NCBI GenBank assembly: GCA_036172245.1
Contig: JAYWIR010000005.1
Location: 310,001-374,000 of the forward strand
Direction of reading: 5' to 3'
Length of the DNA stretch: 64,000 nt
Origin: Raillietiella orientalis
Lineage: Eukaryota
Shown here: one piece after another, positions 578 through 22,390 of the stretch
How positions within the stretch are numbered: position 1 is the stretch's first letter
Layout of the letters: the number at the start of each line of letters is the position of its first letter
The notes under the pieces: generated by a model
Told to the model about the DNA's origin: nothing
The model's input: only the letters and a program-made list of their open reading frames with translations
The model's database searches: none
Translations under genes and position numbers: made by a program

Positions 578-2055
578 ATGCAGGGACAGGCAGACAGGAC
601 GACATCGACCCAGACAGAGTCGGACGATCGTGTGGTGGTAGAGCTTCCGGCTATGTCTGCGACGACGACGGCAATGGCTCAGCCCCCGTGCCCCCACGTG
701 GCGGGGAGTTCGAAGGATGCGACGCCAGCCTGTGCAACCACGACAGCACGGACGTATGCAGCGGTAACGGCGGGCACCAATGCCCACCAAAACCGCAGTT
801 TTGGTAAGTCGGAAACTGGAAAAATCTACAACGAAGACGGACCAATTATACGGATAAGTCCAGACGTGAAACCGATCTCGTTTAAAACTGGACTTATCCG
901 TATAAACAACATCAAGGAAGTCTAATTAGCCCTCTTTAAGGCTAACGTCGACTTTGATCGCTTAACTGAAGAACTAATCCAGAAGGGAATTAACATCCAA
1001 GGACGGTGGGTGCGAGGCATCAGCGAGATGCCATACACCACAGTTTTCCTAGGTGGCGTTTGAATTACTACAAATAAGCAAGCCATCTGGAAGTTTTTGG
1101 CAAAATACGGTGAAGTGCTAGACGTGGAATTCAGGAACCATTCCGGCAAAGTATTTGCCGGCGATGTAAAAGCTATTAATAAAGTTACTGGAGGGAGCGC
1201 AAATTCCAGGTTGGCGCACATCGACGGCGACTCCCAGGAAGTCTACGTACGTCATAGGCAGCAAACGATCTCCTGCATGGGGTGCAAGCAGTTAGTCCAT
1301 AGGGTCAGTGCTTGTCCGAGATCTAGGTGTTTCCGGTGTGGTAAGCAAGGCCATCAGGTTAGGTCGTGTCAGCAGCCGGCGGTATGCGCCTTTTGCAAGG
1401 TTCCGAGTCATGCAAGGTGGAATTGCCCGGAGTACGCGAACTGGCGAACCATACGCGGAATTTCCCCCGTGAGGGAAAGAGTGGAAAAACCGGCCGAAGA
1501 GCCGAAAAAGGTAGTCGCGAAGAAGGCGCGGAAAAAGGGCGTAGCCCCGAGTGTGTCTGAGGACGGGTTTGTGGAAGTGAAGAAAGGGAAAAAGGGGTAC
1601 CCCCGAAGAAGCAGGAAGTCCCCGAGGAATTAAAGGAAGCAGTAGAGGAAAGCGTGATGGCGGAAAAGGCGGGAAAAAGTGTAGATGTTGAATGTGTCAC
1701 GGCACCTGAGGAAACTTTGCAGGTTGCCGAAGACTTGGAAAAGCTGGCACAGGATGTCCAGCGTGGAAAAATTGTGAAAGGAAAAGAGCAAGAACAATTA
1801 CTTCGATGTTTTCGCGAAGTCCAGGAGGACATCAATAGGACGGTGGAGGTGGCCCATCGTGAGAAGCTGGAGAACAAGCTTCTAAAAGTGGAGGCCGAAT
1901 ACTGTGCAAGGGTGAGCCTGGAGATGCTTCCACCCAGTGCCAGTGAGAAGTCGGAACAAGGGACAGAAACTACCGACCTCACTGGCACGGAAAGCGATGC
2001 AGGAAGCGAAAGGCCTTCTGCCTCTGGGAGAAAGAAGGTTCTTCTCAGCAGATGA
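578..2055 (+). pseudogene. LINE ORF1 (gag-like, three zinc knuckles), interrupted by stops/frameshifts
   Basis: CMGCKQLVHRVSAC, CFRCGKQGHQVRSC and CAFCKVPSHARWNC in ORF 1097-1633; 'LAKYGEVLDV' RRM-like segment; DGFVEVKK basic tail. Confidence 0.88.
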
Positions 2056-5000
2056 AGACTAGAAGAACCAGGAAATAAGACCATCCCTTATGGCCTCGTT
2101 CTTATCTACCACCAGGAGAATCAACATTGCCTCCTGGAACGTAAACGGACTGACGGACCAAGGAAAAAGGATTGCACTGACCATCGCACAAGATATTATC
2201 GCCGCGTGTGTTGTAGTTCTCTGCTGCATACGAGGAATATTGGACAAGTGGAACGCGTCAATAAGAGGCCACAGTAGCCGGAATGCCATCCACTGGGCGG
2301 TCATCTCCATGGAGAAGGCTTCCCGTTGGCGCCTGCTGAGAAAAATTCTGCCAGCACTTGTTAGCATCCGGAACCAGATGCAGAGGCTACCCCTCGGCGA
2401 ACAGTGATCCCTTCCCTTCTCTCCCCCCCCTCCATAAACAATGTCCCCCAAGCGTTGTTTTTCGTTTTTTGTATTTTTTTTCTTCCTTTTTCCCGTCCCC
2501 TTCGCGAGTGGAGTAGGCCTTACCGGCACTCAAGTCGGAAAACAAGTGCATCACAATACGAACAATGTGTTCCGACAGGAACACAAATGCAATTAAAAAA
2601 CAATCGACTACAATTACCAATTGTTAATACGTTTTTAAAAAAATAAAGGCCCCGGCTCACCCGGGTGAAAAAACAAGATATTTTATGCCTGCAAGAGACC
2701 CACTAGTTGAGATACCGGATCACCCTCTGGAACGCCGCTTGAACGGCCAATTGTTTGTTAGTGAAGGATAGAAAAAACCATAGATGTGGCGATCCTCATC
2801 AAAAATGAGCTCACCCACACCATTCTGGAAACCTTCTGTCCAATGCCGGGGCGAATTATTGGCATGCGGCTATCTTCGTCCTCCAACGTTCATCTGTTCC
2901 TAGTGAACGCTTACGGACCACACAAACTAAAACATCCGTGCGCGGAAGCTTTGCATGAAGCGCTCAGCAAACGAGTAGCACTGAAAGGTATTATTATTAT
3001 CACGGGTGATCTGAATATTCTGAATGAGATGACTCACTCAGGACGCCAGAGGAAGGACGGCGTATCGGCAGCTGTCCGATGATTTCGGACTTCAGTGGCG
3101 AAGAGCTATCCACAAGCCGATCGACCATGTCCTGCACAGTTCGGAAATCGAGAACCGCATACAAGGATTTCGTGACATGCGAACTTTGCTGTCCGATCAT
3201 CCGTTGGTACGGTTCTCCCTCCGAACAGAAAATCCTCGGCGGAATAAGGCTACCAGGGCGGCGCTCATCTGCATGCCCGCCTGGTTCGAGACGCTTCCCT
3301 ACTACCAGGAGGTCATCGAGGCGATTCTGAGAGATGTAACTATCTGCAGAGTCGCTGACTGGGACAGTGTGAAGCATAGGGTCCATTTGTTCTGCAATAT
3401 GCAGTTCGGAGATAAGAGAATGAGGCAGGAAGCGTATCGGGAGCTAAACACTCAAGATCGTTCACTCTCAAGATACTACGAAGAGTACGAGAGTCGACAC
3501 GTCTTCCGAAATGTAAAAGCGGAAGTCGGTACACTAGAAAAGAAGAATCTGGCAACGGATATCTTCTGTATCCAACCTGGCGGTTATAGTCGACATACAA
3601 CGGAAGACATTGTGGATGCCTTTCAAAGGAACTACACAGGACACTTCCAAAAACACTAATTGTGTTTTTCAAATCAGGTTTTTATGAGACCCTTAGGAAA
3701 GAAGACGGATGACTTCTAACGAAAGAAACTAGAGGAAGATTTCTCCGAAGAGGAATTGAAAGCTGCGTTTCGAGAACTACGCAAGGATATGGCGGCAGAC
3801 CCCGATAGTGTTGCCATTACGCAGTATCAGAGGTACCTGCATGTCTACCTGCGTTTATTCCACCAGCTGACCCTCTGCATCCGAGAAGAAGGACGATTAC
3901 CAGAATCCTTCTACGAAAGTACGATGAGATTGTTGCCAAAAGGAGGTGACCTAACCAAGGTTGCCCAATGGAGACCAATCTCAATCCTTAACTCAGATGC
4001 CAAGTGGTTGGCAAAGCTCTGGGTTAACCGCTTAGGCAAAGTAATGCCGAGGCTTATTTCTCCCGTCCAGATATGTGCGGTGCCTGGACGTCACATGTTA
4101 GACAACGTCAAGTGTACCCAGACCACTATAGGATTCAGCCGACTCATCGATGAGAATCTAGTGCTGGTATTCACTGACATGGAGAAAGCCTTCAACACTA
4201 TCGATCATCGGATGCTTCTGAAGATTCTGAAAAAGCTGGGCCTTCCGGAATACTTCAGCTACTTTGTGAGGATGATACTCCGGAAGAAGTAATTCCGAAT
4301 TTGTATTAACGGCGAAGAGACGGCAGCTATCAGGATGGAACGGGGAGTCCGTCAAGGCGACACACAAAGTCCAATGCTGTTTGTCATCTACATGGAGGCA
4401 TTCCTTCTTTCATTGAGAGAAGCGGACATCTGCACGGAATTACCATTGACTACCAGAAGCTCACACACTTGGCTTACGCAGATGACCTCCTGTTATTCAT
4501 TAAGGAGGAACGAGAGCCGAAAGCGCTCCTAAATGTGATTGAACTAATGGAAACGGGATTGGGCTTGAAAATCAATGCCCAGAAGAGCCAACTTTTGCCT
4601 GTCGGAATCCTGGACCTCTCCGTGCTCACGGAGAGAGGATTCCGAACAGTGGCCACCTCCTAGTACCTAGGAGTCCACATCGGCGACGACTCTGCGTGGA
4701 AGCTCCTGTGGACAGAAATCCTAGGGAAAACGGCAAAGGAAGCAGCAAATTACACACAATTGGACTTCGGAATGAAGAGGAAGGCCAACCTTTGGAATGG
4801 AGTGCTCCTTCCAAAGGTACTATTCGGAGCGGCCTTCCACAGAACGAATAAGGAGATTACGAGAGAGATCGAGAAGCTACAGCGCAAGACCCTATGGGGA
4901 ACTTATCGCCCTAGAGTTAGAGTGAAACCCTTGTGTCGTCCCAAGGAAGAAGGTGGAACTGGGATGAAGGAATCTGGCTGGAGGCTGAAGGAATCTGTTG

Positions 5001-5420
5001 GCACATGGGCGAAGTTAAACCAGTCAAGTGGACGCGAGGGAGAGTAAATCTTGTGTGTCAGGTGCGGGGGGTGGGAGTCCCTCCCTCACCTGATAGTTGA
5101 CTGTCCTGCCCTCCGGTCCCTGTGGGAAGTTTCGGGATGACCCTTGGGTTACCGGTTGGCGGCAACCCCAGAGACGTTTACCGCCTTCTCTTCGTGCGGG
5201 ACGCCCTGCAGCCAGCCGCAGCCCTGGCAGCACTTTGCTGCATCCGTGGGATTGTGGCGGCCCGGATGAAGCCGAAGATGAAGATGCCTACGAAAGGGAC
5301 GTCATCCTGTATGCTGTTCGCTTCCTGAAGAGAGCTACCGGATCGCCCCAGCTGGGTGGAATAAGAAAGGACCTCGAGGGCATTCTGCAAAGGATGGACC
5401 CTCCTATTAGTGGTCAGTGA
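2052..5420 (+). pseudogene. LINE ORF2 (APE endonuclease + reverse transcriptase + C-terminal zinc finger), frameshifted
   Basis: IASWNVNGL, DILCLQETH, TGDLN, SDH (APE); LLPKGGD..WRPISILNSD, DMEKAFNTIDH, GVRQGD..SPMLF, YADD, YLGV (RT); ESLPHL..DCP (ZnF). Confidence 0.92.
2198..2672 (+). mobile_element. 5'-truncated LINE 3' end nested in the APE domain
   Basis: Perfect 10-bp TSD ACAAGATATT at 2188-2197 and 2673-2682. Removing the insert restores TIAQDILCLQETH. Encodes the ORF2 tail (VLCCIRGI) and the terminal hairpin. Confidence 0.92.
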
Positions 5421-5639
5421 TCCCTTCCCGGCCCTCCAAACTCTTTTTTGTTTTGTTGGTTTTCTTTTTCTTTTTGTTTTTTTCCCATCCCCTTCCACTG
5501 CCGAGGAGAGTCACTCTGGTCTGCGTCCCGGCGTCCCGGCAGGTCCTGAGAAATGTTAGTCATTAGTAGGGCCTTGTACCACGTTTTGTAATGACCTTAA
5601 GGAGAGTTTTGAATAAACATCCCGGCGTATCCGGGTAGC

Positions 5640-6085
5640 AACTCCGAAACCGGGGGGCAGGCGTCCCAGGGGGAACTCCTCGCGGATCGAGTGCTTGAGG
5701 CGGTCCCGGTCTGCAAGACTCCGGAGCGTAACACCACTCAAGAATTGGCGGAGATGTTTCATCGCATCGGGGAGCTTTGTCCAGTCCCCCGGGGACGCCA
5801 CGCCTTGGAAGGAGTTCCCTTGTCGCGTGGCCATACGTCGAATACGAGCCGGTAATGGTCGGACAGCTTTGACGGAAGTCCCTCTCGTTTCCCGACCCGT
5901 GCAAACAGGTTGTGGTCGAGGAAGATATGGTCAATGCTGTCCTCCATTTCCGGGTCTCCCTCCATCAGGTTGCGCGAGCGCATGATGGCGCACAACTCTA
6001 TGGGCACGTTCTTTTGCATGCAGGACGCACCTGACAACAGGCAGGGGTTGAAGTCTCCGCCTGTCATTGGACCCTGTGCACTCCT
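5640..6085 (-). pseudogene. LINE APE endonuclease fragment
   Basis: GGDFNPCL, SIDHIFL, LSDHYRLV motifs on the minus strand. Confidence 0.85.
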
Positions 6086-6089
6086 GCAT

Positions 6090-6700
6090 CCTCGGTGAAG
6101 CAGCTAGCACCCGACAGGTATACACCGGTGTGACTTGCTTAACCCATGCCGCGCAAGTGGCGTCCGTTCAGCACGATGCCTTGCTCCAAGAGCATCTCCT
6201 GCAGCTCTTCATTTTGTGTCTATATGGTAAAGCCATTCGCACTTGGGATTATGGCTTTAGTTTCTTTAAAATCGATATTCTTCTCGTGTAGCATGACGTA
6301 AATATCGCGGACGTTGCTAATTCTCATGGTGCTTGCCTTGTGAAGGTCACCGTTTTCACCTCTTGATCCATCTTGCAAGCGGTTTCTTTGACCCTCTGAA
6401 TTTGAAAGATGGCGGACTCGTTCTCCTAGCCATTGTTAGAGACCGCGTGCGTTGTTGCTGGTAGCAAAGCCGTCACCGCTACATACGACAGGTGCGCCGG
6501 CGTTGCTCACGACGCTTGTGCGGTTACCTCGCTAGAGGGCACCAGAGAACACGCCTCCATTGTCTTTTCTTCCGTGCCTAGTGGCAACGAGCTCCTAGAG
6601 TCCTTCCATCTTTCAGCAGGAGCCTGTTGGAATCTCTGGGAAGGGAAGGACACACCAAGGGGTAACACCTTTTCTTTTTACTTGAGCTTTCTTTTCTTGA
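6090..6700 (-). pseudogene. LINE ORF1 N-terminal fragment
   Basis: Minus translation DIYVMLHEKNIDFKETKAIIP..QGIVLNGR aligns by eye with ORF1 at 14979 (DIYLAIHRNRIDFKFIKAIVP..NGPSISGR). Confidence 0.7.
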
Positions 6701-6765
6701 TGCAGGCCTTGTTGATCCCTATATAAATTCCGTGGGTCAGAAGGCAAGCTGCCGACTGCCTTCGA

Positions 6766-7880
6766 TTTTCCCCAAGTCCCCCAAGGAGTGGGGTAAATTT
6801 ATTTTTTTTTTACAACATTCATATTACAATTTTCATTCACACTATTTTACCAATACAGTGGTATTACCACTTTGAAGTCCTTTCAGGGTGTCACAAGTTC
6901 TGAACTCAGGGCGGGGTCCGCGTTGTTGTTTCCCGGGCGTCGTCCTCAATCCTCTCCAGGATGTATCGGTACGTCCAGGCCGGCACTCGTCCACAATTCG
7001 ATGCCGATCTCCTTTTGGATGAGTCTTTGCAGAATCTCCATCGGGGATGCGGCTCTCCTGGCTTTCCTTATCTTCCACCACCGCACAAGTGTGGCGGTGA
7101 TGAAGAGAGAGATGGCCGTTCTCACCATGGGATTGTAGGAGGGAACATTTCCAGTTCCCTGAAACATCCCGGCAAGTATTTCCATCACGGATCTGGTGGT
7201 CATTCCTATAATCCTTTTCAGGATTAGCCAGTCTCGGAGCAATGTGGGGCACGTCAAGATGTGTAGTCTTGTATCTGTGTCTCCACATGCTTTGCAGTCT
7301 TCGTCGTCTTGTCTTCTCGTGAAATACTTCAGTCTGGACCCGCTCAGGATTCCTCCGTGATAAAACATCAGGAGTGTGTGGGTGTCCGGCGGTAGGTCAC
7401 TCCTCCAGAGGGTTGTGCCGATCGCTAACAGGTTGATTCTGTCGCTCCCGTAGCGATCGGCGGCTTCCTGGAGGGCACTGATGTCTTGATCTTCTTTTAT
7501 TAAGCTGAGGAGGTTCTATTTGTTCACCCTGGACCACGCAAAGTCGTTGTGGTTTTTCCACACTTCGCACGTCCTGTGGGTGTATCGTCCTAACACCATC
7601 TCGATATACCGTAGTATGCGAGAATGGTGTTGGTACCCTCCTCTTCTCCATTCCTGGATGAGTTGCAGGGTAACTCTGGGCCGCTGGTAGGTCCAGCTCC
7701 TCGTGTCCGGGGGGACCGGAAGCATCCAAGGGATCACCAGGATGGATTCCTCCTGCCAAGTTCCCTGCTTCTTGGTACGATCTTGAGTTTGTGCTTTCGC
7801 ACCACTCGTTGTTTTCTTCTCCAGTTGGAGTCGATGATGATCCATTCCCCTGCTCAGCCTAGCAGCGCAGTCATCAGGCC
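6766..7880 (-). mobile_element. 5'-truncated LINE, second subfamily (ORF2 C-terminal zinc finger + 3'UTR)
   Basis: CKACGDTDTRLHILTCP; paralogous to 55088-55920 and 60430-60880; 3' end AATAAA..TACCCCACTCCTTGGGGGACTTGGGGAAAA. Confidence 0.85.
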
Positions 7881-7899
7881 TTTTGAGTTTAACAACATC

Positions 7900-8830
7900 G
7901 AGTAGGCCCTATGCGCCGCATACGGCCAGTCGCCCCAGTGAACAGCGATATCCAGGATGTGTCACGTATCCATGATTTCCAAGGAATGCGCTGGAGTTCG
8001 TGGGGCTGCATACCATTCAGCCGTTCTCCTTGGTCAGGGTGGCCATGCGTCCGAGGAGAAGGTCGCATCTTCTGATCTTCCGGCAGGGGCACAGAAGAAA
8101 AGACGCGAGTTCTTGCGTCCTGGATATACGTCTGGAGGGGAGGCGGGCTGGAACGCACCAAGGAGTGCTCCAGTACTTCGCCACGATGGTCAAGGTTCGC
8201 CATCGCAGCTGAATTTCCATCCGCTCCAGCGTCAGGAGGCCGAGACCGCCGTTCCGACGCGGAGCGCACAAGTCCTGCAGCTTCACTCGGGGCCCTCCGC
8301 TGCCCTACAGGGCGATGCACAGGAGGTCCTTGGTTCTCTTCTCCATCTCGCGGGGTACGGGCAAACAAAAAGCAGGGGGAGAAGGAGGGGGGCGCGAACG
8401 CATTCCACACTGCGACCCGTTCCGGCAAGTGAAACTTGTCTTCCAGGAACGGGCCGATCGCCGACTCCACTTTCTCGAGACGACCTGACCACCTGACTTC
8501 TGACGGAAAGAAGTTTCCCAACGGAACGCAAGGTACTTTAAGTACCTCTTCGTGGGGATCCTCAGGCGGATCCAGTCAGGTCGTCCTGCCCACGTTGCAC
8601 CAACCGCTAACACCGACGACTTTGCCTTGTTCACCTGCAGTCCCGTCCCGCGGCTCAGCAAAGACATCGTCGACGATGACATCGAAGTTAGGATCGAAGA
8701 CATCCTCGACTGCCGCTGCCAGGGAGGACATGGGACATGGACAACAAGAGCACAAGATCGTCGGCGTATGCTGCTACAGCAGGCGTGCCGGGGCACGAGC
8801 TCGTCAAAGCAGCCAAGGTCGCCCACTAGG
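7900..8830 (-). pseudogene. LINE RT C-terminal fragment (same subfamily as 10965-12846)
   Basis: GTPAVAAYADD, GLQVNKAKS, KYL, GGLGLLTLERME. Confidence 0.87.
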
Positions 8831-8854
8831 GATACATACGTTAGCCCACATACG

Positions 8855-10035
8855 TTTCAGTGCCACCGAGCACTGGCGGAGAGTTTTAATACGCGGCTAG
8901 GATTTTTTCGTCTTTTCTCCGTCTTTTTTTCAACTTTAAGCTTTTTTTTTTTCATTTTTGGCCTTGACAAGCTGCTAGCCCTTTTCTTCTCCCACGTCTT
9001 CGGAAGGTTTCTCCACTGACATCTGTTGGGGAGTTTCGGGCGCTGGCTGCTTCGGCCGGCCATTTTCCCAATACCATCGGGAAAATGGATTGGTGGATGG
9101 TTTCCAGATTCCCCGCGCGTTTCGTCTATGCCTTTTTAGCGGCCGGGAGAATCGGGATGGGATGCTTCGGGCACACACGACGGACGTGGCCCTTCTCTCC
9201 GCACATGTAGCATTCGATGTTCGGGCACCTCTTGTGGAGATGCCCTACTTCATCGCAGTAGCCACAATACTGGGGCTTCCCTACGTACCAGAGGTCGACC
9301 TACTCGTTTGTGACCTCCAGCTTGTGGGGGAGCCCACCCACGTGCACGCGCTGTGGCCATGCCCCCGAAAAGGCTACGTGAAAATCGTGGGCTTCGGCCA
9401 CAACGCGTGCACGTCTCTGTATTTTTTTAACTGATCACCAACCGCAGACCGCGTCATACGGTTAGTGATGCCGGTCAAATGGGCCACTACCGAGTGGTCC
9501 ATTGATACCGGGAAGATCTTACGGCCGTCCACGATCAACGGGGTGTTAATCAGGCGCCGAGCCAGGCTGATGTCTTTACACACCAGCTCAACGCGCTGTG
9601 CCCCGATGAGCACGGACAGACCGTCAAGATCTTCATGAACATTCATTTCTTGCAGCGCTCGCGTAAACGAGCGTGCTGTCTTGCCGTCAAACAAGGGACT
9701 TACCTTGTATACAAGCGAAGGCTTGTATCCCGTGGCCCTATAGGCGGCTTTCTCGGCCAAGGTTTCGGCGCTGGGCGCGGCCACCATGGTGCTCCAACTC
9801 CTCGCTGGCGGCGAAGAGGATCCTGGGGCAGATGCCCCCATCTCTGCAGGTCGTGAGGGGGGAGTTGCCTCCTCCACACCTACTTCCATCGCGGTGTCCT
9901 CAGGCATAGCTGCCATTGGACACCCACGATCTACACTTCACAATACCACACACACAAAAAAAAAAACCTTTCTGAGGCTCCGTTTACGGAGCGACAGAAA
10001 AACACGTCCGCCCAAACCAGGTTTCGGCGAAGGCC
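8855..10035 (-). mobile_element. ORF1-only (HAL1-like) retroelement, decayed
   Basis: 5' motif CGGACGTG-N9-CGCTCCG. ORF1 starts at 9916 (SWSTMVA; CGYCDEVGHLHKRC, CYMCGEKGHVRRVC) and runs directly into ATTAAA plus a CAGTGC/GCACTG terminal hairpin, with no ORF2. No TSD seen. Confidence 0.7.
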
Positions 10036-10286
10036 GATACACACTTTGGTATGTATTGAAGATCTAAGAGTGTTCTTGGATATATGTAAGCGTTTAAACC
10101 AACTTGTTGATAATACGCCCATTGCTCTCTCATTGATCCATCTCAATTTTTCACGAGTCGACGACAAAAGTAAGGACTGCTATTGCAACTGACTCCAATA
10201 TCCCGATATTAGGTAAAACCATAACGCGAAGAGGCACTAGTCGAAGAGCACCATCTGACCCTAATCCAGTACCTGGTAGTAGCAGG

Positions 10287-10964
10287 ATGTCTCAGAGCTT
10301 TGAGTGGAGGAACCCAAATGACACTCTAGTCCAAATACAGAATAATCTGAGTAGTGGGTCAGCTCGTCAGAATCTGATAGGTATTCATTTAAATCTCGGA
10401 CTCAGAAGGAACGATAGACGAACGAAGAATCTATTTCCTTACTTATTCTTGGCATCCAGAGGAGAATGTATACTCATTCGACATTCATCAAGGAGTGCCA
10501 TGACGAGTGTTATAGAGATAGCCAATGCTATAGCTCCGAATGTACAAAGAATAGGGTTACCTGAAAATCTTGCCAAGGACAGATTCCGAGCCGAAATCAT
10601 TTGCTTTTTATGTAATGAGGGATCTAACAATCCATGGGTTAATGATGCTATTTGGAGTGCAGATTAGCATCTGATGGGCCCTTGCATGAAATGGCATCCT
10701 TTGTACCGATATTAAGGTCTGGATGGAACCCACAAGAAATACCCAGGTTAATGGCACGAGAATCTCTAAGTGCCATAGCATTAAGTAACATCGTAGTATG
10801 GCTTATCGAATTGATTTTCTCATTGCCTCCTCTTCATAGTATTTGTGCGATATTGTATATACAAGCCTTTGTATCGTTTGCGAAGAGAGGTATCCTTACT
10901 ATGTAGAAAGCTGAAAAAATCAATACAAATCTTATTGAAAAGGGTAAACCCAACCCTAATCTTA
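10287..10964 (+). pseudogene. Endogenous chuvirus-like (Jingchuvirales) nucleoprotein, 5' half
   Basis: One frameshift (~10655) and one stop (10904). Contains YIQAFVSFAKRG and rejoins 12861 in frame after LINE removal. The frame is open upstream to ~10100. Confidence 0.75.
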
Positions 10965-12846
10965 GAGTTGGTGCTGAGAGCATACAGGGTAACTCTGGCA
11001 ACCCTGCCGAGCTCGTGTGCCGGCACGCCTGCCGTGTCGGCCTATGCAGACGATCTTCTGCTGCTGCTTCCCGGGTCCACCCCGGCGAGTGCGCTCGAGG
11101 ACTTCGAGTTGCTACGCCGCGAGACGGGCCTGGAGGTGAACAGGGCGAAGTCGTCCATCGTATATGTCGGCTCGGTGTGGGCTGGACGGTTGGACTGGAT
11201 CCTCCTGGGGATCCCCACGGGCAGGTGCTTCAAGTACCTTGGCGTTCCGTTTGGGGACTTCTGCGTGACAGAAGCCTGGTCCGACCGTCTCCAAAAGGCA
11301 TCGTTGGCGATCGGTCCGTTCCGCGAAGGCACGTTTCATTTGCAGGAACGGGCCGCGGTGTGGAACGCATTTGCGGCCCCCCTTCTTCGCCCCCTACTTT
11401 TTGTTTGCCCCGCCCCTCACTTTGTTAAGAAAAGAGCAGCGGACCTCCTAAGGACAGTCCTTTGGAGCAAAGGGAGGTCCCGTGTGCGTCCACGTAAGGA
11501 CGGTGGACTTGGCCTACTTACGCTGGAGCGCATGGAATTGCAACTACGATTTAGGACTCTCGTCCTTGCGGCAGACTTGTGGGACACGCCCTGGTGCGTT
11601 CCAGCATGCCTCCTGGCCCAACGAGCCTCCGGATATGGCGGACTTTCGTCGTTTTTCTGGGCGCGCGACCGCAGACAAGCACACTGCGGCTTTTACCTGC
11701 GTCGCATGGCCGTTGTGGTTCAGGAGAACGCTTGGATCTCCTGCCTCCCCGGGAACTACTCTGCATAGCTGCACGAGTCAGTCTCCACGTGGGAAAAGAT
11801 CCACGTTACGGCGGGCACAAAGAACACTTCTTTGTGCCTGAAAAGGCACGCCTGCTGGACACTGCAGGAGATCGTGCAGTCCCACGACCAGCTTCTGTGG
11901 ACTCTGATTGCTCCCCTTGCCCCAGTGCTGCCCTTTCTTGTGAACTCTAGGGACAGCAACGAGCAGGGGAAATGGACAGTGTCCTGCTCTATTGACGGCA
12001 GGACACAACTGATCAAGGCGTGGACATCTCGGCAGCTAGCGGATGCTGCGACGCCGAGTGTCCTGCCCAACGGCGTTCTACGCTGGGGCGAGCTACTCGG
12101 ACTATCTCCGGAGGAGATGAAGTGGCCCCCAGCGTCCTGGAACAGTGGCTCCCTCCCCTTAAAATGGAAGGAGGTGGCGTTGCTTGTCCTGTATTGGGGT
12201 TTATCCTGCAAAGCACGCCTCTCTCACTGGACACGGGGGGCTGTGGATTCCCAGTGCGACCGGTGAGGGGAAAAAGAGACATTCACCCACCTTCTTCTTG
12301 AATGCAGTGCCATCCGCCCTCTATGGAATCGTCTTACGGCGATTCTGGACATCCGCGGAGGCGCCCCTAAGGACGTTTTTAGGCGCCTCTTCTCTCGTGA
12401 CGCCTTGTCCCCGCCCGCTTGTGTAGCAGTTCTCTGTTGCATTCGAGGGATCGTGGCGGCTTGGAACGCGACCAGAAGGCATCAGGCCAGCGGCAACGCG
12501 TTATATTGGACTCGCCTTTTTGTGCGGAACATCTGCAGGTGGCGCCACTTGGGTGCACAAAGGACGCAGCTTGTGAGGATCCTGAACAGGATCTAGATGA
12601 CCTCTCCGCGCGCACTGTGATCCCTTCCCCGTCCTCCCATCCCCAAAACATTAGTGCCCTCCCACGTTTGAACTTTTTGTTTGTTTTGTTTCTTTATCCC
12701 AACCCCTGAGCGTCGGAAGGACCACGCCGGTTCAACACCGGCAAGCAGCAGGCTGCCTTGTTGTGGTGAACATTGGGTTCGCCACGCGAAAATTGATTGT
12801 ATTTTTATTTTTCAAAAATAAATGCTCCGGCATATCCGGGTGTAAA
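10965..12846 (+). mobile_element. 5'-truncated Tx1/L1-like LINE inserted into the viral N gene
   Basis: 14-bp TSD CAACCCTAATCTTA at 10951-10964 and 12847-12860; AYADD, KYLGV, GGLGL, C-terminal CKARL..CDR; terminal hairpin 12817-12840. Confidence 0.93.
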
Positions 12847-13332
12847 CAACCCTAATCTTACTTCCGATTTGGTGAGAATGATTAATGCACAGCTTGGTCA
12901 CCTTATTGATGAAACCAATGCTGAAATCATATTTACAACTTGGAGTACTGATACACGACCTAACTCATTACGCGCTAGCATTACGTTAGCACAAACTGTC
13001 GGATCAGGTTAAACAGCACTATTGTGTATTCGGAGAGCATTATTAGAGTTTCCAGATATTTCATGGGCGATTATCGGTAAACTACTCAAAACCGAAATAG
13101 ACTGTGTCACCCAAGCCTTAAGAACTGTTAATAACAACCCATATTATGGATTTGCAGCAGATTTAAGAGAAGTTAGATCTACACTATACAAAAATATAGC
13201 TACGTGGCCAAGGAGTTGTTGAGATTGTATGGAGACCCTACTTTTAGCAGCAGCATTAACGATTACAAAGGATGGACAAGCAATCCTAGACATGAGACCA
13301 AATTAAACTCACTTATCTCTCAATATCTTATG
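12847..13332 (+). pseudogene. Endogenous chuvirus-like nucleoprotein, 3' half
   Basis: ITLAQTVGSG, IRRALLEFPD, NNPYYGF..DL..VRSTLYKN, AKELL, YKGWTSNPRH match chuvirus N C-terminal motifs as I recall them. Confidence 0.78.
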
Positions 13333-13766
13333 CTACCAGCCGCAGCCTTGGCAGCACTTTGCTGCATGCGCGGGATTGTACCTGCCTGGAGCGGCGGCGA
13401 CACAGCAGAAAGCAACCAAAGGGACGTCGTCGAATACGCAGTTCGCTTCATGCGAATAGCCACCCGATTGCCTCACCTAAGGTTAGTCCGGAAGGACCTC
13501 TCCAGGATCCTGCGAAGGATAGACCCCGCCTCAAGCGGGCCTCGATTCCCTCGATTCCCTTCCCCTCTAGAGTGTTTTTTTCTATCCATTTTTATTTTAT
13601 TTTTGTTTTTTGTTCTCTTCCCATCCCCCTCCGCTGCCGAGGATAGTCTTGTCAGTCTGCGTACTGACGACCCGGCAGGTTCACTGACTTATTGGCCGTA
13701 CTGGGGCTTCGTACCAGGTTGTACCAGCTAGAATTTTTAAATAAATACCCCGGCTTGACCGGGTGT
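13333..13766 (+). mobile_element. 5'-truncated LINE 3' end fused directly to the viral N fragment
   Basis: PAAALAALCCMRGIV is near-identical to 5211-5255; CTGCGT hairpin 13651-13668; terminal hairpin 13740-13763; no local TSD. Confidence 0.88.
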
Positions 13767-14560
13767 CAACACCGAGGAGGTCGTGTGTGATTTCCTGTCT
13801 CAATACGGCGAAGTTCAGAAAGTGGCGTTCCGCCACATTATGGCGGACGTATTTGTGGGAGAGGCAATGGCCAAAATCAAATTGTTTAAAGACGCCAAGA
13901 TCACAGGAGAAGTGTCCACCGAGGTGCACTCTCAAAACGTTCAGCTCCATTACCGCCTCCAAGGCTGCAAGCAGTTCGGGCATCGGCTCGGCGCATCTCC
14001 GAAAGCTCTCTGCTTTAAATGTGGCCAGCAGGGTCACTTTATAAAAGCCTGCACCAGGCCCTTGCAGTTCCATCAGTCCGAGGTTCTCGAAATGGTTCGA
14101 GGCGCAGGGATTGTCCCCGCTCCCTGCAGTGCAAAGCAAGGAGCACGAAGGAAAAGTGGAGCTTCCCAGAGCTAGCGTGGGTTTCACGGAAGTCAAAAAG
14201 AAGAAGAGGAAGGCCGTGGGCGAAAGCTTCCTCCCTCCTCAGTAGCGCCGAAGGAATTGGGCGTAACGGAAGAGAAGCAACAGGAGCTGGGGTTGGCAGA
14301 GGAGGCAGTCACACTGGTTGAAACCATCCGCCCAGAGAACACGGAGGAGGAACAGAAGGAAGAGATGCGCCGCATCTTCTCCCTCCAATAAGAAATCCTC
14401 GCCACGGTTGTGAATGACCGCATGAGTCCAAATGGAAATCGCCCTCAACGTGGCGAAGGCCGAAATCGTGGCCTTGGAAAAAGAGGCGGAGCTCCCCACC
14501 AGGTCAACTAGGCGTGACGACCGAGGAGCACAGCTTTGCGCACGGACAATCTCATAACTG
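13767..14560 (+). pseudogene. LINE ORF1 fragment (knuckle region to C-terminus)
   Basis: FLSQYGEVQKV, CFKCGQQGHFIKAC, GFTEVKKK. Confidence 0.8.
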
Positions 14561-14579
14561 AAAACGGCAACGGAGGCGT

Positions 14580-15270
14580 GATTATTGCTTGATTTAGCTT
14601 TACCCAATACCCCGCATAGGCAGCGTCAAATACCGCTGGCGCGGTAATTTTTGTGTGCACTAATGGAGCAAGCGACCGTGAAAAGCGAGTGAGTGACCAG
14701 CGTGGTGCAAGATGGAGGCGCCGAAATCACCCGGATCGACATGCCACCGAGGTTCCAAGAGGGAGAAAGTACGACGGATGGAAGTGGAAGCAGGTCTATC
14801 GACAGAGCAAGCGACGACAACGGCTGCTGCAAAAGCAGGTCAGGCACCCGCAACGTCGTACGCGAGCGTGGCCGCATCCACCTCATCCTCAAAGCCCGTG
14901 TCTTTCACGGGAACAATGTTATCGTCAGAAGAGTAATCAAGGAAGAATTCAGGCCATTTCTGGAATTTTGGCTCCGAGATGACCGTAGTCACCTTTTCGA
15001 TGGGCCGATTAAAAAACAAAGCGGTGTGCGACATTTACCTCGCGATTCATCGCAATAGAATCGATTTCAAGTTCATCAAGGCAATCGTCCCATTAGTCGG
15101 AGGATTCTCCGTGTACATGGCCAACCAGGATGTTATCGACGATCTTGTTGAGAACGGGCCGTCCATCAGCGGGAGGACCCTCCAAGGAATTTAGGAGCAC
15201 ACGGCCACGATGGCCTACCTGTCAGGTCTGCATTCGATGACGGACGTGCAAGCCGTGTTCGCCCACTTCT
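14580..15270 (+). mobile_element. LINE 5'UTR and ORF1 N-terminal fragment
   Basis: 5'UTR similar to 331-395; ATSYASVAA and IDFKFIKAIVP segments. Confidence 0.72.
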
Positions 15271-15780
15271 GTCTCCGTGGACGCGCTCGTGGTCGGCTCC
15301 TGGGCGCCTAGTACCCGAATAACGATGTCGTACTCAACCATCTGGTACTTGGCAGACACACGATAAAGACAATTAAGCCCCGATTAGTCTGCTCGGCCAT
15401 CCAGGGCTCGAGGGACATCTACATTGACCATATCACTATGGAACCAGGCACCAGGGGGCACCACGAGCAACAAGTGTTGCCAGCCCCCCTCTCTCGTTGT
15501 ACTACAGGACGCCACATCGGGGCAGGATGTACTGATTGACTTCTGCTGACCACTCGGTCCCTTTACCACCACGTCGAACATCAGTGTGCCGCGCGGATTC
15601 TCGTTGTTGTTTGCAACCCTCTGAGAAGGACTCGTTTACAGCGTGGTCACAATAAAGTTATGACAATAAGTGAATTGGGTGATTAAGTGAAAAAAAAAAA
15701 AAATTGCCACTGATAGGTATATATTGTATGTGAATTGAATTAACATTTTATTTTCTATCTTTAATAGATAATAGTGCAAT

Positions 15781-15866
15781 ATGGCTGAAGAGAGACCAGA
15801 CCAATACATATACAACCTACCCACGCTTGATGGTGGTATAGAGATGGGCATAACAACGTGCAGCGA
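15781..15866 (+). pseudogene. Endogenous qinvirus-like nucleocapsid gene, N-terminus
   Basis: MAEERPDQYIYNLPTLDGGIEMGITTCSD continues in frame at 17994 (VALPESQRLPVL) after removal of the TSD-flanked insert. Confidence 0.6.
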
Positions 15867-17978
15867 CAACCGACCCCCTCCATTGTTCGGACGTGCATTC
15901 TTGCGCTCCGTCTTTGGAATTTTTTGCGGTTGTTCCTTTTGGGTGTGGTGTGTAATTTTCGTAAGAAGATGAAGCCAACACCTGCTTCCATGGAGGTGGA
16001 GGAATCCCCCTGCGTTGCAGGACCTTCTTCGGGAGGATTGGAAGCCTCCACCGATCGTCCCTCGCCTCCAGCGAGAAGTTTTGCCGCCGTTGCTAAGGCA
16101 GCGGCGGCTCACGGAGCCCCACTCGACGAGGCAGAGCTACGGGCGTACGCCGCAAACGGCTAAAATCCCCCTCTGGCCTACAAGTTCAGTGCCGCCTACC
16201 GGGATGGGACGGGAGACCAGCTCTGGAGCGAGCTGGAACGCGTCGGGGTCCGAGAGGACGATCTCCTGGCATTAATGCCGGTGAGCGCGGTAGGCTATTG
16301 GGAGGTGCACTGCAAGGATGCAGCCCTCGTCCAGCGCCTGCTGCGAACGCCCCTTAAAATCAGGGGTAAGGAGGTCGTCCCCTCGGCCCTGGACCATTCG
16401 TTCGTGGTCCAACTCTCGGGCATTCGCCCGAGAATCGCCGACAGCGACCTTATTGTTTCACTCGAGGCGTTCGCCACAGTGCACGCAATGTGGAGGCGCG
16501 CGAATCCGATCAATAAAGTCGCGCGCCTCTCTTGCGGACTCGCCACGGCGCGCGTCACCATGGACGACCGGAGGCTGATGCCTTCGCAGATCCTCCTCGG
16601 TGTATTTACCATCGTGTATTTACGGTTTGCCGGGCAAACCCCTGCATGCGGCAACTACGGTAAGGAGGGCCACCGTCCGCGGAAGTGCCCAACACGCAGT
16701 TGCCGATACTGCAAACTGCTCGGTCACTCGATTAACGAGTGCGCCGAGCTGAAACGCAAGAGGAGGGCGAGAAACCTACCCGCAACATCGCCGTCCGCTC
16801 CGATTCCTTCTGCCACATCGTCGGGCAAGAAATCCGGCGCGAACGAGGCTTCGCAGCGAAGCAGCCGAAAATCCCATTGCGCGGACGTGTCTGGGAGCAA
16901 AGCTCCACAAAAGTCCGCCAAAGAGGGTAAGACGCTGCTTCAAGCTGCCGAGAACAAGCCCCGAGCCACGCAGTCTACAAAAAACATCGGGCAGACTGCA
17001 AAACCGCCGCTTCCGTCCGCTCTCGCTCCGGAGCGAAATAGCGGTGGCACGCCCGGGAAGTCCACCGGAGCGTCCAAAAAAGGGGTCGCGCGCCCCTTTG
17101 CCCGTGAAAGGCAAGCCGGCGACGGCGAGCCCTCAGCGGCAAAGGCTGAAAAGCCTCGCGCGACCTCCAAGAATCCCGCCACTCTGCCCGCACCTTCCGA
17201 TAAGGAGGTGCAAAAGGCAGCAGTTGCGACGGACAAACTGGCCGCCATCGCCGCATCGGAGGCCTTGGAGAGGATGCGGAGGACCCTGGAAGCCCTCGCG
17301 CCGAACCGAGGCAAACCCGAGGGCGACGAGGTTGGCTGGACCTCCGTTGGGGGAAGGAAGAAGGAGCGCAAACCGCGCGATCCTTCCCACTTCCCCATTA
17401 TAAAGGTAGGGGGGGTCAAGAGGCAGCCCCGTGCGCCAAAGAAGGCGCAAGAAAAAGCCTCCGCTGCCGCCGCGCGCGCCGTCGCAAACATCCGCGGCGA
17501 GAGGGCAGCTGCCGACGCCGCGACTACGAAAGGGGGAACGGCGCCGAAGGCACCCTCCAAGAATGCTGGACCAGCTCCGAGCTGCCAGCAGAAGAAGAGG
17601 CAGGCGAAACGCCCGCCGCGCGCGCGGAATTCGGACTCCGAGGTGGAGTCCGAATGCAGCGCAAAGGCTCGCCAAGCCCCGGTCAAGGCCAGGGCTGCGC
17701 GCAAGCCAAAACTTGCCAGGAGAGAGATCGCCGGCATCCATCGCCGGTTCTGAAAGGAAGGAACGGCCGAACCAAAGACGCCTGTCCCCTGCCCTCCATA
17801 TTTTTATTTTTATTTTTTATAGTAGTGTATTTGTGGTCCCCTCCCTCCCGTTCCGGACTTTCGGCATACCGACCTGCGTGTCGGGGATCCCACCCCCTTC
17901 GTCTCTTGTTTTTCCCTTTGTCCAGGAACTCTGTTCCCGGATAGTTTTTAATAAACGCCTCGGCGCACCCGGGTGATA
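15867..17978 (+). mobile_element. Full-length ORF1-only non-autonomous LINE derivative (HAL1-like)
   Basis: 15-bp TSD AACAACG(T/G)GCAGCGA at 15852-15866 and 17979-17993; 5' CGGACGTG-N8-CGCTCCG; ORF1 only; 3'UTR CTGCGT hairpin and terminal AATAAA hairpin. Confidence 0.88.
15969..17753 (+). pseudogene. ORF1 of the ORF1-only element (two zinc knuckles, long K/A/R-rich tail)
   Basis: ATG 15969, SFAAVA, stop at 16161, frameshift before 16275; CGNYGKEGHRPRKC, CRYCKLLGHSINEC; GWTSVGGRKK. Confidence 0.85.
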
Positions 17979-18818
17979 AACAACGGGCAGCGATGTTGCC
18001 CTTCCAGAATCCCAGAGACTACCAGTGCTTATCACTCCCACTGCCATATACAACCAGTTCGTGCACGCATTGAACTGGTTTATAACCACACAGTCATACT
18101 CCAGTGATATCGAACCGGTGATCGTGAATGGCCTGTTTGCTGTTTGCATACGGGTCAGTGCATTTCCGTAATGTCAACGGCGTTAAAGTGCCTGATGGAG
18201 ACTATGTTGTGACTAGGATTATCGAGCCAGATAAAACCACTAAAGAGAGACTGCTCAAATTGCTCGATAAGACATTATGCCAACACATGTTAATACTGCT
18301 GCATTCAACTAAAGCCAGTTACTGTAGGTGTAACCACCAGGTTGGTACAGGAGAAAGAGGCAGTCGTGGTGCTGGTTACCCATTAAAAGTGGCAAACACG
18401 TACTTTTCCCGATATGACACAAGCAGGATTATAGGCTTGGCACATCAGTTGGGCCATTACATCTCCACTTACTATGTCCTGGGGGCAGCTGGCATAGAAG
18501 GGATAGGGCAAACACAGGTCGTTCCACCTAACGAAAAGGAACATACCAGCTGGACATTTGGACCTGATGCAAGACGCGAATTCAAGTCAGCCCCTGCAGG
18601 CACACACCGCATGCAGCAGGGCTTAAGGTATTCAAGAGGATGCAAGATATTGTCCTCGCATCACCGAAATGATGGCCCTCAAACCTGCATGTGACAATAA
18701 TGGATGACCCAGTCAGACATCATAAAAGCATTCGTTATTTGACTGGTTAACCTAGGGCTAACTTCCTAGATACTGATGCAGACCGATATATGGGACGACT
18801 CGGGTCATACGTTAGACA
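17979..18818 (+). pseudogene. Endogenous qinvirus-like nucleocapsid gene, main body
   Basis: STKASY..NHQVGTG, GYPLKV, HQLGHYIST..VL, D.R..KSAPAGT, DPVRHH..IRYLTG*PR..D.D...MGRLGSY resemble Qinviridae segment-2 protein motifs (from memory); frameshifts near 18140 and 18630-18700. Confidence 0.62.
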
Positions 18819-19165
18819 TTTATATCTTGCTGCTCGAGGGGAGTGTATCCTTACAAGACATCTATCTAGAGCTACTATGACAGATGTGGTAGCGATAGCT
18901 AACACCATAACCCCTAACGTTCGTGCATTAGGATTGTCAACCGAAGCCGCACAAGCTCGTTTTGATTGCAAGTTTTGCATTTACTCTGCCATGAGGGGTC
19001 CAATAATCCATGGTTCATGGTAACAGATGAAAGGTGGACCAATGCTCTAAGTCCGGGAGGACCCTTACACAACATTCTAGGACACGTGCCCGAAAGATGG
19101 GCAGGATGGAATATAAATGATCTTCCAACCCAAATAGCTAGAACTGATATTTGGGATGATGGAAA
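18819..19165 (+). pseudogene. Second, divergent chuvirus-like N fragment (N-terminal region)
   Basis: LYLAARGECILTRH..CHEGSNNPW..GPLH..GWN aligns with LFLASRGECILIRH..CNEGSNNPW..GPLH..GWN at 10440-10735. Confidence 0.75.
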
Positions 19166-19229
19166 TCCTTTTGGGTTCTCTTCTGTCTTCGCTATTTTTT
19201 CCCTTCCAGCATTTTTTTTCCAGGTTTTT

Positions 19230-19598
19230 GAGGTTTTCTTTTTTTTGGTACGCTAAGTACCTCAAGTGCCGGTCGCGTGCCTCGCGGCGCACGTGGCTCT
19301 TTAACACTGTTCCACTTCACCCGCGGAGGGTGAGTGTTATTCTTCAAGATAGGGGACACCCCGGAAGGGGGGTTCCGCCCTATGAATCCAGGAAGGCTTG
19401 GAGTCCGTTCCTCTCACGCATCCCCCACCCTGGTTGTCTCCGAAGGGATCTCCTTCCTCATTCTCTCCGGAGGGAGCACCCCGGAAGGGGGTGGTCCTCT
19501 CCATTTCATCTTCTCCGAAGGGAACCCGCAAGGGAACCGCTCCTGTTCACTCTGAAGAGAACTCCGAAGGGACGCTTTCGAAATTCAGAAGGGCGCTC
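19230..19598 (-). repeat. Unclassified dispersed repeat, probable retroelement 3' end
   Basis: Highly similar to 43081-43590; related to 30310-30600 and 55985-56135; A-rich end and CGTGC/GCACG hairpin. Confidence 0.75.
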
Positions 19599-21804
19599 AC
19601 CGACCATTTACAAATCTTCGGACCAAAACACCCAAATCCATTCCGCAACTTACAAAAACTGCACTAACCAGAGCATATCTCGAGCCAGCCCGAGGTATAG
19701 GAGCTCAAAACATCGCATGCAGCAGCAAGCAAGACAAAAATGGACCATAAACCCACGATGTCTCTGACTACTAAATAAAGGTAATCTTTTAAGACTGCCA
19801 TGCCTTCCGTGAGGGGAAGTGTCGGCAACAAGTGCTGCCATATCCAGACTCTCCTTTTCATAAAATTAACACACATTAATCACACATGTATTCGTATGAA
19901 TTACAGACCGATTCCAGAAAATCTAACACGAAGATAAAATTCACTAACCAAACCAAATAGACTTGACCAATTTTTCTCATTTCAGACGCTCAACCCCATC
20001 AAAGTCGGAACAGTAAATAATGGACAATCACACCAAATTTTACGCTAGGAACCTACTTTTCAAAGAAAAAAAAAAGAAAAATAAAATAAAAAAGCCATCA
20101 CACTCACAGAAAGACAATTGTTTGCCACCCATTAGTCAATTAGACTCGTAAGGTGGCTACCCCAAATAACAGAAGTACCCAACCAGAGACATATGGATCC
20201 ATGACGAAATCTGAAACACAGGAAAGAAAAACCCTCGCAAAATACCTCTACTACTGCAAAGAAGCAACATACCTAAAACTTGCAAGAAATCATACGTAGT
20301 CCACCTTTATAATGGATACAAAAATCGTCTGCGTAAACTGGGTGACACAATATGGCTTTACTCAAGCCATTAAAAATGGCATAATCTTCGACCCAAACTA
20401 GAACGGATGCATAAAGTTCTACGAAGTAACACACGTAGTATGCTTCGCCAACATTTTGAGAAGATACATCGCCAACAGTTCTCTGGCAAATCAAAACTTT
20501 CAACTGACAGATGGAAAATCGAGGCTATCACAGACGAGAGAGGAAAATCATCCCTCGTCATGAAGAAAAACGAACTCACCCTACGATGACCAAAACAACG
20601 CCTACTGATGTATCTTCCAAAACAAAATGAAAAAAATGACAAAACTACCATCCTTCGAATTTATTTTTAAAAGCTGAAACGTCATATAACAACGGATTGT
20701 CCTCCGGAAATATTTTTTTTCCAGAAAACCTTGAGACCCACAATGATTCTCACGGTCAACATATGCAATCAACTACACCCAAAAATTGGTCAGTTACTTG
20801 GAAACGATGTTGAATAGTACTAACAGCCCTGGACACCCTGGAAAACATTCATACGGGCTCACATCCAAGGCTCACATTAACAACGCACTGCCTTCGATTC
20901 TCAGGATCAAGGTTACGTTGTAATGTATAGCATAGTACATTTCTCGGTCTTCTCAAACTGCCATTGCAACTACTCGTGGGTCCAACGAACAGATTGAAAA
21001 AGCACACCTCAAGAGAAACGAACAAGCAACGTGGATCTTTAGTGACGGCAGCTTTCAACTCAAGTATCGGGGCTTACCCTAAGATCCCACATTCCCTGCA
21101 GAAAGATGCCTGATGCAGAACACAACCTATTATAACAATAACCTAGGATTATTAATCTTTTAAATTATGATTTTATTTCAGGATGAATCATATAGCTGCC
21201 CTCTCACATGAGACATATGATGATTGTTCTTCATACACCAAACTAAGCTCTGTAGCAGTGTTCGTCCAACTAGCATCCAATGAGTACCTATGCAAAGACC
21301 TCAAACAGCAACTGACCAGCTTGCAATACCTTTACCTCTTCACAATCACGTAGATACCTCAACTTCTCGAATCATGTGCTCACTCCTCCCGATATTATGG
21401 GACTGCTCAGGCAGAAAAAGTAACTAACAGGATAGAATAACCTACCACCAATTTCAAACGTCATTAATTATGAGTCTGGTAATTATCATCTCATACTATA
21501 TGGACTACACAAAATCTTGAGACTGAGTGAACCCCTGCAGTTCTGTTCCACAATTCTAAGCAATACATCTGAAAAATGGATTGCGGAAATTCATTTCTGA
21601 ACCTCAGAAAAGAAAGGCTAGCCCTAAATTAGCGGAGCAAATAGCAAACACTTCCATAGTGTCTTGAAACCTTGATTCTGTTCCTCACTTAACAATGCTT
21701 CAAAGTTTATAAGAACAGTTTAGGGTTGGGCTGGATATCATGATTCTAGAGATCATAGATAGAAACATACTGTTGTATGTTTCGCCCGGGTGCTCTTATA
21801 GTGT

Positions 21805-22390
21805 GTGCTCTCCCACATCACTATTGATACATCCGAACGTTTGGTTGTTACACAACGTAGCTCGGAACAACCGACTACAATAACGGTACGAAAGACTCCT
21901 TCTGGGTCTCATCGAAGGCGATCGAGAAGACTCAGAGATACAACCACACTTCGTACTCCTGTGACTAGGTCCAGGGCTGGTGCGGATACTATAAAAGAAG
22001 CTGAACAGATAGAGATGACTGACGAGGACTACACATCTGCCATTGATCAACAAACTTCCGATCGGGATACACGTCGACCTCCTACCATGAATCAGAAGCA
22101 GAGCCCTGGTCCTTCTGCCGCTCCTGATAATAGAGCTTATGACTGGCGTAATCCTAACGATAACTGCACTCAAATTCAACAGCTCTTCAGCTCCAATTCG
22201 CCTTTAACCAGAATTATAGGTATAAATTTGAACCTCGGACGAGTTAAAAATGATAGAAATGGAATCAATTTGTATCTTTTTCTATATCTGGCCACTCGAG
22301 GTGAGAGCATTCTGATCAAATATCAGAATAGGAACAATATGACCCAGGTGGTTGCAATACTTAATCTTATAGTCCCCTCTCATAAAAGTG
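21805..22390 (+). pseudogene. Third chuvirus-like N fragment with a long low-complexity in-frame N-terminal extension
   Basis: YDWRNPNDN..QIQ..IGINLNLG..LYLATRGESIL matches FEWRNPNDT..QIQ..IGIHLNLG..LFLASRGECIL at 10287. Confidence 0.75.

Follow-up and report, generated by a model that had tools for sequence, protein, structure and literature searches.

The stretch of DNA analysed here, which we call the window, comprises 64,000 bases of the Raillietiella orientalis assembly GCA_036172245.1 (contig JAYWIR010000005.1, positions 310,001 to 374,000 of the forward strand), and all positions given below are window positions. Between 10287 and 13332 it carries two stretches that together read as a nucleoprotein (N) gene of the chuvirus type, separated by a long interspersed nuclear element (LINE) that we call LINE1. 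Two further LINE copies, LINE2 and LINE3, follow immediately downstream, and beyond them lie two smaller N-derived fragments (Table 1). We give a probability of about 0.93 to the reading that the main N element is a defunct copy of a chuvirus-type N gene, close to full length, and hence a non-retroviral endogenous viral element, which was later split by a LINE.

The N element is read in four pieces, numbered from 5' to 3', and piece 1 is enough to identify the family. Used as a phmmer query against 1.84 billion representative sequences, it matches six proteins at E <= 1e-3. Four of these, 408-555 amino acids (aa) long, are N-like: P0009 (E 1.7e-13), P0011 (2.5e-6), P0012 (1.4e-5) and P0014 (6.2e-5). 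A source is named for three of these, namely 'MAG: putative nucleocapsid [Wufeng shrew chuvirus 6]', 'nucleocapsid protein [dermapteran chu-related virus 142]' and 'ORF3 [Chuviridae sp.]', and the NCBI taxonomy places both Wufeng shrew chuvirus 6 and dermapteran chu-related virus 142 in Jingchuvirales, Chuviridae. The other two matches, P0010 and P0013, were set aside as spurious on reading their sequences, which are internally repetitive and matched in 8 and 4 stretches, respectively (query residues 29-85). The original prediction, made from the DNA letters alone, had called this N-terminal block otherwise unrecognisable; that was overstated, as the block by itself finds chuvirus N with the best of these E values and is missed only by Pfam.

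All four pieces lie in the same order on P0009 (490 aa). With tblastn, P0009 aa 76-211 match 10266-10661, aa 226-298 match 10766-10966, aa 294-411 match 12848-13201, and aa 411-452 match 13198-13326. The corresponding blastp matches are aa 91-211 for piece 1 (E 6e-18; the phmmer range is aa 90-211), aa 226-297 for piece 2 (E 6e-3), aa 294-411 for piece 3 (E 8e-29, 48% identity over 118 aa) and aa 408-452 for piece 4 (E 6e-7). Only five residues are matched on both sides of LINE1, and they are the ones encoded by a short duplication described below, so the match is continuous when the LINE and a single copy of the repeat are taken out. We also built a profile from eight N proteins (454 positions) and searched it against the 1475 stop-to-stop open reading frames (ORFs) of at least 25 aa in the window at Z = 1e6. 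It gives seven hits, all on the plus strand, and five of them are pieces of the main N element, covering profile positions 45-158, 208-249, 267-320, 322-384 and 382-426 in that order. The E values are 4e-18 for piece 1, and 1e-7 (267-320) and 3e-18 (322-384) for piece 3. The blocks that the element has in common with exogenous chuvirus N are W-R-x-x-N-D, LxSRGE, FVSFxKRG, GSGLT, NNPYYGF, YVAKELL and TRNP. When piece 3 was compared with viral contigs, one 20-residue match appeared on a 176-kb contig and was dropped as chance.

Joining 10287-10964 to 12861-13332 gives 678 + 472 = 1150 bases, or about 383 codons, with two in-frame stops and two frame changes. At the first frame change, the tblastn matches of P0012 and P0009 quit frame 3 at 10631-10661 and restart in frame 2 from 10646. 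At the second, the P0009 match runs in frame 2 to 13201 and in frame 1 from 13198, and the P0012 match runs to 13198 and resumes from 13189. The ATG lies six codons ahead of a conserved W, which is residue 3 in P0014 and residue 14 in P0011; because these distances are comparable, the 5' end of the coding region, with its start codon at 10287, is probably complete. The 3' end is not: the element stops where P0009 has aa 452 of its 490, and about 40 C-terminal residues, including the last predicted helix of P0009, are gone. The original prediction of about 380 codons with a few stops and frameshifts, all belonging to one chuvirus-type N, agrees with this count, with the colinearity on P0009 and with the profile order, and the N-profile search that it proposed for the two flanks finds the same family on both sides in colinear order. 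All peptides that it quoted are present in the translations.

The boundaries of LINE1 are marked by a direct repeat. Searched for on both strands of the window with up to one mismatch allowed, the 14-base sequence CAACCCTAATCTTA occurs as two exact copies, a number reached in none of 100 dinucleotide-preserving shuffles, and the pair is also the longest direct repeat within 9800-14300. The first base of the repeat (C) may be the LINE's own, since four LINE copies in the window end in AAC, so the duplication is 13 or 14 bases long. The two copies are 1896 bases apart from start to start, and as this is 3 x 632, the reading of 10646-10963 in frame 2 is carried on, still in frame 2, by 12861-13219. 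Both copies encode N sequence, and tblastn aligns both, gap-free, to the same five P0009 residues (aa 294-298). The duplicated bases are therefore N coding sequence, which means that LINE1 entered an N copy that was already integrated. The order of events can thus be read directly from the DNA: the N copy came first and LINE1 second. A 14-bp target-site duplication around a 1.9-kb LINE (in fact 1882 bases), an N frame that is restored when the LINE is excised and a viral copy that predates the LINE had all been predicted, and all three are borne out, with the proviso that the true length of the duplication is perhaps 13.

LINE1 differs from its surroundings in GC content (about 55-69% vs 31-45%) and keeps one reading frame from end to end, interrupted by stop codons at 11766-11768 and 12264-12266; its 3' untranslated region (UTR) is 250 bases long. 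Its translation has relatives at six other places in the window (one of them is 4472-4966, E 1e-11), and its DNA matches other window copies at 67-71%. A Pfam RVT_1 scan covered 55 of the 240 window ORFs of at least 110 aa (the ones that lie within the first 28 kb but not in the N element), and a related copy at 3720-4660, which adjoins one of the LINE1 matches, scores above the cut-off in it (49.8 and 30.9 bits). LINE1 terminates in a hairpin (...CCGG..CCGGGTGTAAA(C)), and a 3' end of the form AATAAA..CCGG..CCGGGTnnAAC is common to the copies ending at 12846/7, 13769, about 5651 and 17981. The start of the insertion falls inside the reverse transcriptase (RT), i.e., the copy is 5'-truncated, and its 3' end is complete and typical of the family. 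Given the RT-bearing relatives and the recurring 3' end, the insert is therefore a 5'-truncated non-LTR (non-long-terminal-repeat) retrotransposon, belonging to a repeated, RT-bearing family that is abundant in the window. On our reading, this truncated LINE inserted, as a later step, at the codons for aa 294-298 via target-primed reverse transcription, duplicating 13-14 bases of N.

Table 1. Positions of the N-derived pieces, the target-site duplication and the adjoining LINE copies in the window
Feature	Positions	Strand	Description	Evidence
N piece 1	10287-10664	+	126 codons, ATG start, WRNPND...LASRGEC...EGSNNPW; N-terminal lobe of chuvirus N	phmmer, profile, blastp to P0009/P0012/P0014
First frame change	10630-10667	+	frame 0 ends at stop 10665-10667	tblastn, ORF list
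N piece 2	10646-10963	+	frame 2, in-frame TAG 10904-10906, carries YIQAFVSFAKRG	hhalign, tblastn
Target-site duplication, copy 1	10951-10964	+		exact repeat, longest direct repeat locally
LINE1	10965-12846	+	5'-truncated non-LTR retrotransposon: RT end (YADD), C-terminal domain, 3' UTR and terminal hairpin	RVT_1, relatives, 3' motif
Target-site duplication, copy 2	12847-12860	+		exact repeat, longest direct repeat locally
N piece 3	12861-13219	+	frame 2, in-frame TAA 13010-13012, TVGSG and NNPYYGF; best-conserved part	blastp, profile
Second frame change	13189-13201	+	frame 2 to frame 1	tblastn
N piece 4	13198-13332	+	frame 1, YVAKELL...GWTSNPRH...	blastp, profile
LINE2	13333-13769	+	437-base 3'-terminal fragment with intact 3' hairpin, abuts the N copy	DNA match, protein match to LINE1 C-terminus, 3' motif
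LINE3	13770-17981	+	larger copy, apparently 5'-truncated in ORF1, from the LINE2 3' end to the same 3' hairpin	extent inferred
Second N-derived fragment	18751-19256	+	middle of N, two frames	tblastn, profile
Third N-derived fragment	22129-22416	+	N-terminal block, inside open 204-codon frame 21802-22416	profile, tblastn

Two in-frame stops, two frame changes, the LINE1 insertion and the lost C-terminus together rule out a functional N protein, and the copy is therefore a pseudogene. The element is chromosomal and not exogenous: it has LINE1 with its duplication inside it and LINEs on its flanks, it carries these disabling changes, and exons of a host leucine-rich repeat (LRR) gene occur in the same window. 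Three exon-like frames of that gene at 48619-49719 on the minus strand match LRR_4 at E 6e-11 to 2e-17 within an island of 35-39% GC, which marks the window as ordinary animal DNA with introns.

Whether the matched family really is the chuvirus N can be judged from the genomes in which its members occur. We scanned viral contigs with the N alignment and confirmed four relatives from 59 pattern matches. Three of the contigs (L002, L004 and L005, 11-12 kb each) carry a large ORF that is open at its 5' end, then a G-sized ORF of about 680 aa and then the N relative; on the fourth (L003), a G ORF precedes the N relative. The Pfam scans of these contigs covered L and G of L002, G of L003 and the large ORF of L004. 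The L002 large ORF matches Methyltrans_Mon_2nd above the cut-off (E 4e-6) and Mononeg_mRNAcap under it (E 1.7e-3, 18.3 bits with a cut-off of 22.2 bits), the scan of the L004 large ORF gave no hit, and Monjiviricetes_fusion is found on G at E 5e-176 (L002) and E 6e-260 (L003). Judging from this gene order, the matched proteins are encoded by the chuvirus N gene, which comes third after L and G. A search of metagenome contigs with a four-sequence alignment confirmed one locus from 159 pattern matches. At 2570-3043 of this 3.5-kb record, a C-terminal N fragment of 157 codons lies beside proline-/alanine-rich low-complexity DNA, and it is probably another chromosomal chuvirus N fossil of some eukaryote.

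Comparison with the all-helical, two-lobed N fold of Monjiviricetes, made on the relative P0009 and not on the fossil itself, gives a mixed picture. An AlphaFold model of P0009, made with an eight-sequence alignment, is all-helical and has a mean predicted local distance difference test (pLDDT) score of 62.6; the core blocks mostly score 70-90 with dips to 49-69, and the first 108 residues score below 50. Searched against BFVD, the model gives 25 matches at E <= 1e-3: 16 are named nucleoprotein or nucleocapsid, two are labelled ORF3 or hypothetical protein 3, four are uncharacterised and three are unnamed. All of the named matches come from chu-like or related viruses, and the top ones (Genoa virus, Canne point virus and Umea virus) reach about 1e-17.

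Several results weigh against this reading of the element, and they concern its similarity to N proteins, its placement, LINE1 and the original integration. The nearest relatives, P0009 and P0012, are only modestly similar (38.2% and 37.2% identity over 199 columns). Piece 2 taken alone is weak in hmmsearch (E 0.71 at Z = 1e6); hhalign aligns it with the eight-sequence N alignment at a probability of 91.8% (E 7e-7, P0009 aa 240-287). Pfam, which has no model for such N proteins, returns no family for any of the four N pieces, the two other N fragments or the ORF at 18128-18694. None of 161 candidates passes E <= 0.01 in a word-indexed search of piece 3 against longer proteins, and word-indexed searches with P0009 and with the four-sequence alignment return P0009 alone. 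A PDB fold search with the P0009 model has no match at E <= 1e-3; the 25 rows listed are all paramyxo- or pneumovirus N, at E 0.016-0.45 and template modelling (TM) scores of 0.26-0.42. The N tree (nine rows, with the window row filling 200 of 454 profile columns) is comb-like and does not settle the family position of the element. LINE1 itself matches RVT_1 under the 29.6-bit cut-off (E 3.7e-4, 20.7 bits), only the RT end being present. Finally, neither a duplication nor a poly(A) belonging to the original integration of N was found. Apart from these points, PDB sequences gave no match for piece 3, and the ESM Atlas gave nothing usable for piece 1.

The arrival of the N copy has to be read from its flanks, both of which are occupied by LINEs. 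On the 5' side lies a minus-strand copy of LINE1's family at 7981-10040, with its RT region at 7981-8819 and, by eye, an ORF1-like frame at 9374-9937 near its 5' end. That 5' end comes to about 250 bases or less from the N start codon, on its upstream side, and this copy probably hides the original 5' junction of the fossil. On the 3' side, LINE2 matches 5212-5647 at 67% on the DNA level and shows no duplication around it, the 17 bases before its junction with N being unique in the window at up to three mismatches. LINE3 begins exactly at the LINE2 3' end, again without a duplication; near its start, the ORF at 13759-14172 matches zf-CCHC (E 3.2e-5), with a zinc knuckle at about 14010-14060. 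In our view, the original integration of N was presumably the work of LINE machinery.

A more specific possibility, which would add to the above reading and concerns the arrival route only, is that one template-switching event, driven by a LINE, captured the N copy. Reverse transcription would have started on LINE3 RNA at 17981 and gone back as far as 13770, switched to the 3' end of a second LINE RNA (LINE2, 13769 back to 13333), then switched to an N mRNA at about codon 452 and continued to its 5' end, so that the missing N C-terminus would never have been integrated. This is suggested by the same-strand position of LINE2, which directly abuts N with an intact hairpin and, unlike LINE1, has no flanking duplication, by the equally duplication-free start of LINE3 at the LINE2 3' end, and by the lack of any downstream profile hit to N positions 427-454. 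However, those last 28 profile positions are poorly conserved, and a downstream remnant could escape detection. There is also no duplication around the whole chimera when 9900-10300 is compared with the sequence after 13769 or after 17981: the best local scores are 13 and 14, and of 300 shuffles 90% and 61%, respectively, score at least as high, although the test is a weak one because the 5' flank is LINE-disrupted. Since nested independent insertions and deletions explain the picture equally well, we regard template switching as a tentative proposal with somewhat less than an even chance of being right.

The window contains two more N-derived fragments, both downstream of LINE3. In the second, 18751-19020 matches profile positions 94-147 (E 0.035 at Z = 1e6), the other frame extends the match to about 19124, and tblastn matches come from P0012 (aa 196-299) and also from P0001 and P0002. 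In the third, 21802-22413 matches profile positions 25-132 (E 3e-12), with a tblastn match to P0009 aa 90-168. The third fragment is 49% identical to piece 1 in amino acids over 84 codons, and the second is about 48% identical to the main element. Across the alignments of these fragments with the main element (33-84 aligned codons), identity is 48-58% for amino acids, 54-70% at codon positions 1 and 2, and 28-45% at position 3, with the caveat that alignments chosen at the protein level favour positions 1 and 2. In the second fragment, third positions are near random. Such a pattern points to divergence that accumulated under protein-level selection, in viruses before integration. This suggests three separate integrations and not genomic duplications. 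In the window, tblastn of three L, four G and four N proteins from the viral contigs gave N alone at E <= 1e-2, with no G- or L-derived fragment.

Just upstream of the second fragment, an AT-rich island contains an open frame of 188 codons (18128-18694, plus strand). It has no match in Pfam, the ESM Atlas, the viral contigs or the N profile, and the PDB sequence rows returned for it are at chance level (E 0.49 or worse); it may derive from some other virus or be a chance frame. Rfam and tRNA scans of the window gave nothing.

The flanks and the extra fragments can be combined into a broader picture, in which the N copy is the 5' end of one same-strand template-switch chain (N mRNA, LINE 3' end, longer LINE) lying within 12 kb of two independent chuvirus N fragments, and the region is a recurrent trap for viral RNA, possibly a small-RNA defence locus against chuviruses. 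We consider this picture speculative and, taken as a whole, rather unlikely.

The source of the N copy is best discussed with the tree, whose construction the original prediction had proposed. The tree was obtained, but with strong support on just one of its six inner branches it yields no placement beyond 'nearest P0009 and P0012'. The source virus could accordingly belong to another Jingchuvirales family, or to a neighbouring Monjiviricetes lineage, and not to Chuviridae in the strict sense: identities to the eight references are just 16-38%, the tree is a comb, the closest protein (P0009) carries no name, and the BFVD match at rank 20 (E 1e-7) is labelled 'qin-related'. Against this, the two next-closest references are filed under Chuviridae, and Hubei myriapoda virus 8, megalopteran chu-related virus 119 and Beihai hermit crab virus 3, which we take to be outside Chuviridae, rank 25th or lower in BFVD. 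PMC11521997 also places these viruses outside that family. We therefore think a source outside Chuviridae improbable, at roughly the level of an outside chance.

Two further readings would change what the element is. The halves on either side of LINE1 might stem from different viruses that integrated separately and are neighbours by chance, with the 14-base repeat a coincidence, and the two further independent N fragments in the window lend this some plausibility. However, the repeat is exact, is not expected by chance and coincides with the very ends of a LINE whose 3' terminus is typical of its family, both of its copies fall gap-free on the same five reference residues, and the frame is kept across it, so we consider separate origins of the halves very improbable. 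The idea that the host has domesticated the element and continues to make an N-like protein from it, for which one can cite the open 204-codon frame around the third fragment and the exapted N-derived genes of other hosts reported in PMC4982594, can be dismissed with slightly more confidence still, as the main element is interrupted by two stops, two frame changes and a 1.9-kb LINE and has lost its C-terminus.

The preferred reading, a decayed chuvirus-type N copy split by a LINE, has close parallels. Ixodid tick genomes contain several chuvirus lineages derived from N/ORF3 (PMC10675110), 92 N-like chuvirus elements occur in teleosts, amphibians, squamates and marsupials (PMC11521997), and one of 428 mosquito chuvirus elements is N-derived (PMC7642597). 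The tick and vertebrate elements are, like this one, N/ORF3 fragments in animal DNA that have decayed by stops and frame changes; the window element differs in being just 37-38% identical to the nearest N proteins retrieved, so its virus lineage appears not to be closely represented among them. Chuvirus N fossils are already known in ticks, vertebrates and mosquitoes, and the retrotransposon-split copy is a further example.

EBLNs, which are endogenous copies of bornavirus-like N genes, have poly(A) and duplications typical of LINE-1. They resemble the window element in that both were copied from the N gene of a negative-strand RNA virus and are associated with LINE activity, but the sole clear duplication in the window belongs to the later LINE inside the fossil and not to the fossil's integration, and a LINE 3' fragment stands in place of the 3' end of the fossil. 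U6/L1 chimeric retrocopies offer a parallel for that junction, as they too have a 5' copy of a captured RNA joined on the same strand to a LINE 3' end, with no internal duplication. A duplication flanking the chimera was sought in the window and not found, so the locus is at most a candidate member of that class. In comparison with the exogenous N proteins of dermapteran chu-related virus 142 (YP_010839897.1) and Wufeng shrew chuvirus 6 (WPV62265.1), the window copy has the same conserved blocks and colinear layout, but it is broken, chromosomal and missing its last ~40 residues.

Any present-day role of the element would lie at the RNA level (e.g., as a template for small RNAs) rather than in a protein. 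Knowledge of viral fossils and of how they form is unchanged by this locus, and its use is as raw material for virus-host history in Raillietiella orientalis. For that purpose, it supplies the fairly complete N of a chuvirus lineage only 37-38% identical to its nearest retrieved relatives, and LINE1, having landed after the N copy, serves as an internal marker of relative time. The N fragments here, which lie within 12 kb of one another, appear to come from at least three chuvirus-like viruses that were related but distinct.

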